From Candidatus Aenigmatarchaeota archaeon (GTDB lineage Archaea > Aenigmatarchaeota > Aenigmatarchaeia > CG10238-14 > SCSR01), in the NCBI GenBank assembly GCA_038998335.1, contig JAVZHQ010000001.1, forward strand, positions 384,001 through 448,000: a DNA stretch of 64,000 bases, read 5' to 3'. The translations under genes and the position numbers were made by a program. Under the pieces are notes generated by a model. It saw only the letters and a program-made list of their open reading frames with translations. It was not told the origin of the DNA and did not search any database. Positions 22,803 to 46,029 of this stretch are shown piece after piece; position 1 is the stretch's first letter, and each line of letters begins with the position of its first letter.

Positions 22803-23441
22803 ATGGGAGTAAGAGAAAAATTAACATCCTTCTGGAAAAGCTTAGAAGGCGCCTCTCTTCTTAGAAAATATGTTAACGGAGAAATAGGAATTAAGGAAGT
22901 AGTAACAGTAGAAAAAGGTGGAATAAAATTCTTTGGTGTTATACCAGTTTTTCCTATGGAAGCAAAGGACTGGGGAAGACTTATAGAAGAACTTATAAAA
23001 ATTCATGGTCCTGGTGTAGTTGCAACGATGAGAATGAGTTATAAAAAGAATGGTTACGAAGAAACAAAAGAACTTAAAAAAATTTTACCAAAAGAAAAAA
23101 TAATTAAACTTCTTGAATTTTGGATAGACTTAGGGCATATAGAAAAAATTCTCGAGATTAAAATGGGAAAAAATAACGAGCTGCGAGAAGTTTCTTTTGA
23201 GAATATTTTAAATGAAATAAAGGAAGATGATAATAAAGTTGTAGTAAAGGTAAAAGGTTCTCTTTCTTGCAAAGCAGTAAAAGAAGTTATGAAAAAAACT
23301 CGGTATCCAGTTTGTATCCATGAACCAGGTTATATAGCTGGCTTTCTAGAAGCTTTAGTAGAAGGAAAATGGGAAGTTGAAGAAACTAAATGTGAAGGAA
23401 TGGGAGATAAGTTTTGTGAGTGGGTTTTCTTTAAAAAATAA
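22803..23441 (+). CDS. V4R-domain protein
   Basis: PVC...GYIAGFLE...VEETKCEGMGDKFCEW. Confidence 0.8.
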   Translation: MGVREKLTSFWKSLEGASLLRKYVNGEIGIKEVVTVEKGGIKFFGVIPVFPMEAKDWGRLIEELIKIHGPGVVATMRMSYKKNGYEETKELKKILPKEKIIKLLEFWIDLGHIEKILEIKMGKNNELREVSFENILNEIKEDDNKVVVKVKGSLSCKAVKEVMKKTRYPVCIHEPGYIAGFLEALVEGKWEVEETKCEGMGDKFCEWVFFKK

Positions 23442-23462
23442 TTTTTATCTCTTTAAGTAAAA

Positions 23463-23479
23463 CGAAAAACTTATAAATA
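23463..23479 (+). promoter_or_regulatory. BRE/TATA promoter of the 16S transcription unit
   Basis: CGAAAAAC-TTATAAATA about 30 nt upstream of the structured leader. Confidence 0.65.
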
Positions 23480-23506
23480 CTTTGAAAACAATTCTTTTAA
23501 ATAAGC

Positions 23507-23586
23507 CTCATGGGCATGGCGTTGGACTTTGACTCTACCGACTTAACGGCAGGATGAAAAGTTCTATTCCTGCTCATGAGATAAAC
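23507..23586 (+). ncRNA. H/ACA-like guide RNA in 16S leader, predicted target U24629 (E. coli 966 equivalent)
   Basis: Lower stem CTCATGGGCA/TGCTCATGAG, pocket TGGCGTT / ATTC, upper stem GGACTTT/AAAGTTC, GA...ATGA K-loop, ATA box 15 nt from the pocket. Confidence 0.75.
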
Positions 23587-23646
23587 TTGATCCTGAAGTA
23601 GTGCTTCAGGTAGGTTGATTGGTGAAACCTAGAGGTATTCCCGCCA

Positions 23647-25193
<1,547 letters not shown>

Positions 25194-25288: not shown

Positions 25289-25304
25289 TGTTAGACGTCT
25301 AACA
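25289..25304. repeat. 16-bp perfect palindrome TGTTAGACGTCTAACA (copy 1)
   Basis: Identical copy at 46014-46029; related GTTAG-N4-CTAAC at 27439-27452. Confidence 0.8.
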
Positions 25305-25309
25305 AAAAT

Positions 25310-28576: not shown

Positions 28577-30618
28577 AGAAGATGAAACTACCATAGGATA
28601 AGCTGGTCAAGAGGTCCTGGCAACAGTAGCCCACTTGGTGGATGGCTCGGCTTGGTTAGCCGAAGAAGGCCGTGCCAAGCTGCGATAAGCCTGGGTTATC
28701 CGCATGGAGGAGCTGACCCCAGGATTGCCGAATGGGATTCCTAGCCCGTTAAGGGCTATTTCGGAAGAAAAGGGAACGCGCCGAAGTGAAGCATCTTAGT
28801 AGGCGCAGGAAAAGAAATCAAACGAGATTCGGTGAGTAGGGGCGACCGAAAGCCGAACAGGACAAACCGAACTTTCTTTCGAAGAGGAAGAAAGGATGTG
28901 GAGTTACAGGACTTGGGCCTTTCCTAGCTTGCTAACCTGAAGTGAGCTGGAAAGCTCCACCATAGAGGGTGATAGTCCCGTAGGGGAAGGCAAGAAGGAA
29001 AATGCCAAGTCTCCTGAGTACCATTCCTTGGATATGGAGTGGGAATTTGGGTGGCATTAACATCCAATCCTAAATACTAACCAAGTCCGATAGCGGACTA
29101 GTATCGTGAGAGAAAGCTGAAAAGTACCGCGAAAGCGGGGTGAAAAGAGCCTGAAACCAAGTTGGGCATAGTCAGCTAGGGCATGAAAGGTGCTACTCCG
29201 AAGGAAATTCTCGCAAGAGAAGAGTACGAGGAGTAGCTTACAGTGTCCTAGCATCCGTTCTGAAAAACGGGGCAGGGAGTTTGCTCGAGTAGTGAGGTTA
29301 AGGGGTTTAAACCTCGAAGCCAAAGCGAAAGCGACAAGCCCGTAGTCTCGCAAGAGACGTGGGGCGGGGTGTGAAAGCGCCTGAAATTACTCGAGCAAGA
29401 CCCGAAGCCGGTCGATCTAATCCTGGGCAGGATGAAGTTCCTCGAAAGAGGAATGGAGGTCCGAACCGGTGCTGAGACCCAATCGCTCGGTTGACCCAGG
29501 ATTAGGGGTGAAAAGCCAATCGAGACCGGTGATAGCTGGTTCCTCCCGAAATGAGCGTCAGCTCAGCCTGGTTGGAGGTAAGCAGTAGGGTAAAGAGACT
29601 GATTGGACGGTCAAGGTGCGAAAGCATCAGCCGTCCTGTCAAACTCTGAATCTACTGCTGCCTGAGAAGACCGGAGTGAGGGTACTGGGTTAAGCTCGGT
29701 ACCCAAAAGGGGAACAACCCAACCTGGGGTTAAGATCCCTAAATGCCGGCTAAACGAAGAAGGGAGTCCAAATCCTTAGACAGCGGGGCTGTAGGCTTAG
29801 AAGCAGCCATCAGTTAAAAAGTGCGTAACAGCTTACCCGCCGAGGGTTTGGGCCCTGAAAATGGAAGGGACTAAGCCGGCTGTCGATACCCCAGACCTGC
29901 GAAAGCAGGGGGTAGGGAGGCGTTCTGCATGGGTAGAAGCTTGTTCGTGAGAACAAGTGGACCGTGCAGAATTGAAGATCCTGCCATGAGTAGCAGCATA
30001 GCTGGGTGAAAATCCCAGCCGCCTGAACCCTCAGGGTTTGCCAGCAATGTTCGTCAGCTGGCAGTTAGTCGATCCTAAGGGCGCTCTTAACCGAAGCGCT
30101 CAAAAGGGAAATCGGTTAATATTCCGATACCATGGAGGTACGTGCGGCAACGCAAGCTAGCTTTCCGACGTTTCGGGATAGGCCGACGCAAGTTAACTGC
30201 CGAAGCCTGCAGAGTCTCGTAACGAGGAGAAGCAGGTGAAAGCAGGAATAGCTCCGCGTATGCGGAGTTCGGCCGATTCCTGGAACCCGTGAAAAGGGAA
30301 GCTAGAAGGATCCTCCATGATCGTACCAAGAACCGACACAGGTAGGGTCGCTGAGAAGGCGAAGGCGTGTTGGGAGAACCCAATCCAGGGAAATCGGCAA
30401 ATTGGCCCCGTATCTTCGGTAGAAGGGGTGCCTGTTCTCTCGAAAGGGAGAACAGGTCGCAGTGACAAGGGGGAAGCGACTGTTTAACAAAAACACAGGA
30501 GACTGCTAGTCCGAAAGGATTTGTACAGTCTCTGAGGTCTGCCCAGTGCCGGTGTGTGAAACCCGGTTCCAACCGGGAGAAGCCCCGGCAAACGGCGGCG
30601 GTAACTCTGACCGTCGTA

Positions 30619-30664
30619 ACTCAGGGCGGTCATCTGATTTGATGATACGCCGCCTGGGCGACAT
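30619..30664 (+). ncRNA. 46-nt BHB intron in 23S (E. coli 1927/1928) with D'/C' motif and cis guide
   Basis: GTCG-TA|A-CTCAGG...CCTGGG-CGAC-AT|A; CTGA-T-TTGATGA inside. Confidence 0.9.
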
Positions 30665-30792
30665 AAGTAGCGTAATCCCTTGCCGTTTAATTGACGGCCC
30701 GTTCAACGGCTTAACGACTTCCCCACTGTCCTGGGTTGGGACCCAGCGAAAATGCTGTTCTGGTGAATAGGCCAGAGACCTCCGGTGGGAAA

Positions 30793-30823
<31 letters not shown>

Positions 30824-30976
30824 GCGTTGCTGTAAGGTTGAAATTGCATAGAGTAGCTGGGACTCGCTATTAGGCGCAGGCTTCGGCCGAGGCTGAGAGG
30901 AAAGTGTAACACCAGCCCTTTTCAACCTTACGGCTTACCCGTAAGGGGACAGCGTCAGATGGGCAGTTCGGCTGGG

Positions 30977-31060
30977 AGTTTAGGAGCTAGAATGAAGAGT
31001 CCCTTAAGTTATGAAAAAATGATTAAGGGCATACGGTCTGAACAGCTCCTAAACCAGCAA
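30977..31060 (+). ncRNA. 84-nt BHB intron in the 23S P-loop (2252/2253) containing a complete box C/D sRNA
   Basis: GCTG-GG|A-GTTTAGGAGCT...AGCTCCTAAAC-CAGC-AA|G; splicing restores GGCTGGGGCGG. Confidence 0.93.
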
Positions 31061-31115
31061 GCGGTACGCCCTTGGTAAGAGATCAAGGGCGCCCAAAGCT
31101 CAGCTCATCCGGGTC

Positions 31116-31212
31116 ATGTCAGAAGTTGAAGCTATGATTACACTGCTCCAGAATGATTTAAAGATGAGTATGGAGGTAGCTTATGAGCTTTCATCAACTT
31201 CTGACACCCGAA
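31116..31212 (+). ncRNA. 97-nt BHB intron in 23S (about 2306/2307) containing a complete box C/D sRNA
   Basis: CGGG-TC|A-TGTCAGAAGTTGA...TCAACTTCTGACA-CCCG-AA|A; splicing restores CGGGTCAGAAATCC. Confidence 0.92.
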
Positions 31213-31384
31213 AGAAATCCGGAGTAGAGTGTAAGCGCAAAAGCTGGGTTGATTGGATCCCGCAAAGCGAGGGATCCAAGGGCGAAAGCCTGGGCTAGCG
31301 ATACATCGGTTCGCCTTAATGGCGGCCGGTGGTATCAGAAAAGCTACCTCGGGGATAATGGGCCCGTGGCCGGTGAAAGCCCAC

Positions 31385-31427
31385 AGCTCAGGGGTTTTCA
31401 TCCCACTCGATAGCGACGAGCGGGTAA
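31385..31427 (+). ncRNA. 43-nt BHB intron in 23S (about 2477/2478)
   Basis: GCCC-AC|A-GCTC...GAGC-GGGT-AA|A; splicing restores AGCCCACATTGACCC. Confidence 0.88.
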
Positions 31428-31526
31428 ATTGACCCGGCGCGTTGGTGCGTCGCTGTCGGCTCCCCCCCTCCTGGCCGTGCAGTAGCGGCCAAGGGTACAG
31501 GTGCCCACTGGTTAAAGGGGGACGTT

Positions 31527-31560
<34 letters not shown>

Positions 31561-31958
31561 GCTATCTACCGGAGGTGCTGGCTGTCTGACCGGAAGGATG
31601 GGTGAGTACGAAAGGAACACCCATCCGTGGCCTCTGGTCTACCGGTTGTTCATCGCACAGCCGGGCAGCTAAGCCATAGCGGATAAGTCCTGAAGGCATC
31701 TAAGGACGAAACCGCCCGGGAAAATAGGCAGCCAATTGCTCTGCTATTCCGCAAGGAACGGTAGAGCAACGAGGGCTCTCCTAGACGAGGAGGTTGATAG
31801 GAAGGGGGTGTACGCGCCAAGCTTTCGAGCGAGGCGTTCAGCCCGCCTTTCCTAATCGCCCGAGGTTGCCAGGACTTGATAAGCAGCTTATCCTATGGTA
31901 GTTTCAAAAGTTTTTTTCTAAAATAAAAAAGTTAAACTTTTTTTTCTTAATTTAATTT

Positions 31959-45989: not shown

Positions 45990-46013
45990 TTATGATAACT
46001 TTTTGATCTTCTT

Positions 46014-46029
46014 TGTTAGACGTCTAACA
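46014..46029. repeat. 16-bp perfect palindrome TGTTAGACGTCTAACA (copy 2)
   Basis: Identical to 25289-25304. Confidence 0.8.

Follow-up and report, generated by a model that had tools for sequence, protein, structure and literature searches.

The leader of the 16S rRNA gene in an archaeal genome of about 1 Mb carries, in the apical part of a hairpin, a 15-nt antisense element that exactly complements a hairpin in the 16S rRNA itself. This complementarity is conserved among related genomes well beyond chance, even though the shuffle figures given below overstate the case, since kin are not independent. The reading we favor, if with modest confidence, is that the distal stem-loop of a K-turn, in a cis-encoded H/ACA-like hairpin, carries the 15-mer as an accessory antisense, and that the 15-mer would pair with the nascent 16S; judged from sequence comparisons, it probably works as a base-pairing anchor or tether, or as a folding helper, in ribosome assembly.

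Within the window, by which we mean the whole analyzed stretch of 64,000 nt, archaeal 16S and 23S rRNAs are encoded at 23647-25193 and 28614-31875, respectively. As the original prediction had claimed, ACCGACTTAACGGCA at 23537-23551 (plus strand) is the exact reverse complement of TGCCGTTAAGTCGGT at 24741-24755 (plus strand), which lies inside the archaeal SSU rRNA match. Alignment to the annotated E. coli 16S places this target at annotated positions 1084-1098; with a +1 offset, which we take from the G966/C967 landmark, it would correspond to about 1085-1099 in standard numbering, the position assigned to it before, and we take the hairpin there to be helix 37. The 15-nt match ends abruptly, the bases flanking the antisense and the 16S site being unpaired, and no further copies of the complement of ACCGACTTAACGGCA were found besides 24741-24755 when up to two mismatches were allowed. 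The possibility that a longer 16S fragment had been copied in inverted orientation was considered and rejected, the match not being extended by the flanks. It should be noted that the window contains 49 exact inverted repeats of at least 15 nt, nearly all of them AT-rich, so that a 15-nt inverted repeat as such is not rare there; when the 147-nt leader was compared with the 16S and 23S, a match of 15 nt was reached in none of 5000 leader shuffles and one of 14 nt in two. Among the repeats of the region is also a palindromic 18-mer, TGTTAGACGTCTAACAAA, present twice as an inverted pair at 25289-25306, just after the 16S trailer, and at 46012-46029.

The duplex of the apical element with the 16S site is predicted at -29.7 kcal/mol, and the local hairpins that it would have to open at -4.3 and -4.4 kcal/mol (the 16S hairpin alone, -4.4); the best 23S site for the apical element reaches -21.8 kcal/mol. 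In contigs of two DNA runs (X2 and X4) compared with 23440-24800, the leader piece differs from the window only at 23503, 23535, 23582, and 23589, differences that constitute the variant seen in the sister genome G001 and leave the 15-mer unchanged; contigs of two other runs (X8 and X9) show further differences from the window.

The hairpin that houses the antisense extends over 23507-23583 (plus strand). It consists of a lower stem, P1 (23507-23516 with 23571-23580), an internal loop or pocket formed by the strands TGGCGTT (23517-23523) and TATTCC (23565-23570), an upper stem, P2 (23524-23530 with 23558-23564), and an ATA box at 23581-23583. The upper stem is topped by a K-turn at 23531-23557, in which GA 23531-23532 stands opposite GA 23556-23557 with GAT 23553-23555 as the bulge, and the K-turn encloses an apical stem-loop at 23533-23552. 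The minimum free energy of the whole hairpin is -30.6 kcal/mol (z -4.5; none of 200 shuffles was equally good). Across 44 distinct aligned hairpins, every one of the 17 pairs in P1 and P2 changes on both sides, and 76% of the cells of the two stems are paired, versus 36-50% with the partner slid (0 of 500 shuffles as high). The GA ... (R)ATGA signature of the K-turn is kept in nearly all relatives, the part that it encloses being variable. No Rfam family matched the leader at gathering score, the best being snoR101 (18.9 bits) and sRNA41 (19 bits).

The 15-mer spans the distal stem-loop of the K-turn, with two closing pairs, a small internal loop, a CCG/CGG stem and the loop ACTTAA; the CCG/CGG stem-loop forms within the antisense itself. 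It is followed by GG and then by ATGA at 23554-23557, which agrees with the 2-nt gap to the ATGA noted previously. The original prediction had placed the antisense in the apical loop of an H/ACA-like hairpin, beside a K-loop: The apical position stands, the 15-mer being itself a small stem-loop instead of a plain loop, and the supposed K-loop is more aptly described as a K-turn that has a distal stem.

A TATA-like box, TTATAAATA, is found at 23470-23478 (plus strand), and a TATA-like motif no more than 70 nt upstream is present in 35 of the 46 parsed leaders of relatives, mostly 43-47 nt before the pocket motif. With the start site placed by the usual archaeal spacing between TATA box and start, transcription would begin near 23497-23502; the box and its similarly spaced equivalents in relatives suggest that the transcript probably starts near 23500, and the hairpin at 23507-23583 would then probably be the first structure of the pre-16S transcript.

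The layout of lower stem, pocket, and upper stem is that of an archaeal box H/ACA sRNA, with covariation in 17 of 17 pairs. PMC7991803 places the K-turn or K-loop of archaeal H/ACA sRNAs 5-6 nt above the pocket; here, 7 pairs separate the pocket from the G-A pairs, or 6 if the pair adjacent to them is assigned to the K-turn. An ANA box is expected 14-16 nt from the pocket's top, and 16 nt (23565-23580) precede the ATA at 23581-23583, which reads ACA in G001 and in contigs of three DNA runs. The helix-31 loop of the 16S (24625-24637, plus strand), situated 112 nt upstream of the antisense target, offers a partner for the pocket. Its U24629-C24630 are equivalent to E. coli 966/967 by alignment to the E. 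coli 16S; AACGCCG at 24631-24637 is complementary by eye to the pocket strand TGGCGTT (23517-23523), and GGAT at 24625-24628 can pair, also by eye, with ATTC at 23566-23569, including one G-U. The bipartite pairing expected of such sRNAs around a target U amounts to 8 bp or more overall, with no fewer than 3 per side; counted by eye, there are 7 bp 3' and 4 bp (one G-U) 5' of U24629-C24630, with one pocket base unpaired, and this modest extent counts against the favored reading. U24629 is a candidate pseudouridylation target that the pocket may embrace. A pocket target adjoining the antisense site, TTAACGAG, was also considered and rejected, as it offers only 4 bp. The genome encodes proteins like TruB_N/Cbf5 (72 bits), Nop10 (71 bits), and L7Ae (109 bits); Gar1 was not found in this genome, which is 90% complete, by a search that also missed Gar1 in a Sulfolobus control.

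To place the match in its evolutionary context, leaders, and 16S sites where contigs allowed, were collected from relatives; the family concerned (f1) numbers 70 species genomes, and 53 of these have a 16S match. Using the pocket motif as its anchor, a script extracted the part enclosed by the upper stem from 46 leaders, and those of G022 and G067 were added by hand, giving 48 apical elements from 24 genera (12 of 60 leaders were unparsed and two misparsed). Conservation was assessed in those f1 genomes, 27 from 16 genera, for which the apical element was parsed and the genome's own 16S site was available. A Watson-Crick complement of at least 7 nt to the same 16S hairpin is present in 11 of these genomes and 9 of the genera: 18 nt in G045 (genus g11), 15 nt in G000 and G001 (g1), 14 nt in G042 (g11; 16 with G-U), 11 nt in G023 (g19), 9 nt each in G022 (g18; 12 with G-U), G019 (g15), and G065 (g33), 8 nt in G057 (g6), and 7 nt in G050 (g5) and G085 (g37). 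A tenth genus is added by G011 (g7), with 7 nt. In 2000 shuffles, the number of genera reaching 7 nt averaged 0.59, with a maximum of 4, in a test that keeps no phylogeny; with same-sense and reversed-site controls, two genera had at least 7 nt and none had at least 8 nt, and only 3.5% of the 28-nt windows of the same 16S loci reached 7 nt. Conservation in related genomes was the very check on which the original prediction had staked the complementarity, which has come through it, with compensating changes (see below) in addition.

Outside these ten genera the picture is different: No complement of at least 7 nt is present in 7 of the 16 genera with their own site (g10, g12, g14, g17, g20, g31, and g36), so the element is dispensable. 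Among 16 genomes from outside f1, the antisense was not seen by eye in any of the seven recognized leader hairpins (six parsed, and that of G033 by eye), and in G028 and G033, the only leaders of this group with their own 16S site, a scan of the whole leader gave 5 nt each. A quick 16S tree shows the carriers spread along the f1 backbone and not as one clade, many of its forks being weakly supported.

These absences bear on a rival reading, which we consider rather unlikely, namely that the apical stem-loop has no role beyond a structural one as the K-turn's distal stem and that its likeness to the 16S is an ancestral relic or due to chance, decaying neutrally and with no pairing in the cell. 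It is favored by the 7 of 16 genera that lack the complement, by the kinship that inflates the shuffle test, and by the variability of the enclosed part in length and sequence, which ranges from 5 to about 80 nt, with plain hairpins in g6 and a bare K-loop in G026. Against it stands the specificity of the match: When the apical elements are compared with the whole 16S, the reference bins 1080-1119 are matched by 10 genera and every other by no more than three. The conserved core, moreover, is found at differing places and on differing strands of the apical stem, and in g1 and g11 a core of 14-15 nt is intact with both flanks changed (one reading CTCT, TTTA, or TTTAAG, the other G, AA, or GAAA). 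In G045, new complementary bases have lengthened the match to 18 nt. Of all 6-mers in the apical elements, ACGGCA has the widest distribution, recurring in 7 of 20 f1 genera, and it is absent from the remainder of the leaders; this shared core may reflect one inheritance.

Changes on the 16S side provide a further point of comparison. Three genomes (G011, G057, and G050) have the 16S loop GCCGTC instead of GCCGTT, and the leaders of all three have GACGG instead of AACGG, a matching base in each case that also argues against a stem-loop kept for structure only; in G057, the compensation is weak because its G belongs to a stem GTC..GAC common to all g6 leaders. In g20 the 16S stem is altered to GCGC/GTGC, and the four g20 genomes with their own site have a complement of only 0-5 nt. 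Leaders of g20 type read AACGCAC in G074 and TAACGCA in the g20-like contigs L107 and L141; those of L107 and L141 match their own altered 16S stem GTGCGTTA, and for G074 this stem is known from other g20 genomes and not from G074 itself. A one-base deletion points the other way and is in line with neutral decay: The metagenome contigs L095/L098 and L135 lack one T of the core, and in L095/L098, whose 16S hairpin has not changed, 8+8 bp interrupted by a bulge remain, which indicates that perfect pairing is not maintained everywhere.

The arrangement of the antisense relative to the K-turn allows the type of guide to be assessed. It had been suggested that the 15-mer could act as a D-box guide, making the RNA a hybrid of the H/ACA and C/D types that would direct 2'-O-methylation of C24743, five bases from the ATGA. 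A gene for fibrillarin (282 bits) and a K-turn of the C/D kind, formed by GATGA and TTGA, are both in keeping with such a guide. Box C/D guides, however, leave the K-turn on the side of the noncanonical stem, directly 5' of a D or D' box (CUGA); here, the antisense lies on the distal, canonical (C-stem) side, the order of D-like TTGA, antisense, and C-like GATGA is the reverse of that in a guide, and no CUGA box follows the antisense. The sole downstream CTGA (23594) belongs to a covarying hairpin, where relatives have CTGG, CTTG, or CTGC instead, and a full C/D reading of 23552-23597 (GGATGA ... CTGC ... ATGAGA ... CTGA) was rejected for the same placement of its CTGA. Between the antisense and TGA there are 2-6 nt in g1, g11, g18, g37, g5, and g6 (3 nt in G000, 4 in G045, 6 in G042, and 2 in G085), as against 26 nt in G023 and 11-14 nt in g15, g33, and g7 (G019, G065, and G011), where the core is on the 5' strand of the apical stem; four genera in all have the antisense on the opposite strand of that stem. 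A spacing of 2-26 nt on either strand leaves no fixed target base, and a search for the marks of a C/D guide found none of a box-adjacent guide, a fixed fifth-base ruler, and a second C'/D' or terminal C/D pair. The variable spacing and the distal side of the K-turn lead us to reject the hybrid reading, and methylation of C24743 is hardly credible.

The favored pairing of the apical element is accompanied by a possible second antisense, GCCTCATGG at 23505-23513 (plus strand), which is complementary, with one G-U, to the 16S stretch CCGTGAGGC at 24731-24739 (plus strand; E. coli about 1075-1083), one base upstream of the main target. This suggests another reading, in which the leader is a folding timer acting through an alternative conformer: The hairpin would open, and 23505-23513 and 23537-23551 together would sequester 24731-24755 until the leader is removed, independently of pseudouridylation. 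Besides the proximity of the two targets, this reading can draw on a shuffle p of about 0.01 per genome for the match of the 5' flank, on two compensating changes in g6, where GTCTCACGA faces its own TCGTGAGAC, and on matches of other leader stretches to the 16S in many genomes. The second antisense, however, consists of the 5' flank and a strand of the lower stem, and its pairing would break P1, which covaries as a helix; the match is also missing in g12, g14, g15, g19, g31, g36, and g37, and the two arms are not ordered as a simple interrupted duplex. We regard this timer as quite improbable.

Several other elements were observed in the leaders. A second leader hairpin at 23591-23613, CCTGAAG-TAGTG-CTTCAGG, covaries in relatives and keeps an AGTAGCG-like loop. 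At 23621-23640, at the foot of the processing stem, there is a second K-loop-like hairpin, GGTTGATTGGTGAAACC, which is kept in most relatives and whose 5' side, GGTAGGTT(GA), is complementary to 16S positions of about 101-110 (23747-23756) in many genera. The last 10 nt of the leader, CCCGCCAATT at 23637-23646, are complementary to AATTGGCGGG at 24581-24590 in most genomes examined; since neither side varies, covariation offers no basis for judging this pairing. In g10, g12, and g31 (L011, L014, L055-L057, L060, and L062), the apical element is replaced by an insert of 50-80 nt with its own hairpin and a GGTGATGAC box resembling a second K-turn or a C box.

The 16S genes themselves also contain insertions. 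A 78-nt insert at 24383-24460 is absent from relatives, whose matches join across it; with a CACGAG/CTCGTG helix at its ends, it looks like a mini-intron. In many relatives (L008, L044, L052, L040, L041, and L095), introns closely flank the two 16S hairpins at E. coli 1075-1099 (equivalent to about 24712-24760) on both sides, so that a micro-exon of about 37 nt is left, and G056 and G061 have an extra mini-intron within the first of the two hairpins.

Under the favored reading of an accessory antisense, L7Ae, Cbf5, and Nop10 would assemble on the leader hairpin during its synthesis. On synthesis of the 3' major domain of the 16S, the apical ACUUAA would contact the UUAAGU loop at E. coli 1085-1099; the complementarity of the loops ACTTAA and TTAAGT means that a loop-loop contact could start the duplex, which may then zip up to as many as 15 bp. 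The duplex would fasten the leader particle to the head domain as it emerges, at a point 112 nt downstream of U24629, and would keep the 16S hairpin (E. coli 1085-1099) unfolded until the leader is cut off. The complement is conserved independently of its position, which fits an element that acts simply by pairing; it could equally serve as a tether of the leader particle near helix 31 or as a clamp that delays folding of the hairpin. A folding chaperone or anchor, the alternative offered earlier, is the putative role that agrees with the conservation pattern. A bolder version, which we put forward as a speculation and think unlikely, would give this family of small-genome archaea a cis-acting counterpart of the eukaryotic assembly snoRNPs U3, snR30, and snR37: An H/ACA particle on the first 80 nt of the pre-16S would modify the helix-31 uridine and also, by means of the apical antisense together with the 5' flank, hold the two hairpins at E. 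coli 1075-1099 unfolded, forming a checkpoint at which head-domain folding is released on leader cleavage.

The literature searched contains no account of an archaeal rRNA leader that includes an H/ACA-like RNA, nor of an archaeal K-turn whose distal stem carries an antisense. Dennis, Russell and Moniz de Sa reportedly described, in 1997, U3-like cis sequences in prokaryotic pre-rRNA leaders, which are said to concern the pseudoknot at the 5' end of the 16S. These sequences share with the element described here the idea that the leader pairs with the 16S to steer its folding; unlike it, they reportedly involve neither a head-domain hairpin as target nor an H/ACA or K-turn hairpin.

Among the nearest known systems are the archaeal box H/ACA sRNAs, with which, according to PMC7991803, the leader hairpin shares the lower stem, the internal pocket, the upper stem, an ANA box, here 16 nt below the pocket's top, and a K-turn, which here stands some 6-7 pairs above the pocket; genes for the Cbf5-like protein, Nop10, and L7Ae are likewise present here. 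Unlike these sRNAs, the leader hairpin belongs to the pre-16S transcript itself, at whose 5' end it is encoded in cis, and in the distal stem of its K-turn it carries a second, long antisense against another 16S hairpin. Eukaryotic box C/D snoRNAs have been proposed to be aided by extra base-pairing to the rRNA near the modification site (PMC3116282), and these likewise have an accessory complementarity outside the catalytic guide; that pairing is in trans and eukaryotic, whereas the one here is H/ACA-like, in cis, archaeal, and 112 nt from the putative target. Among H/ACA snoRNPs, snR30/U17 and snR37 pair with or scaffold the pre-rRNA (PMC7991803 and PMC13015370). Both are eukaryotic and act in trans; snR30 pairs through the bottom of its pocket (PMC7991803) and the leader element through its apical part in cis, and the bifunctional snR37 scaffolds through extra proteins (PMC13015370), unlike the leader hairpin. 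PMC7991803 and PMC3608112 treat nonmodification roles of archaeal guide particles as speculative and know of no archaeal counterpart of snR30 (PMC7991803) or of U3. The leader element is a concrete candidate for such a role: A hairpin resembling a guide RNA is joined to the very substrate it would act on and bears another antisense, one that is conserved and in part compensated; if this is true, a reduced genome would couple the modification of its rRNA to folding without trans-acting RNAs.
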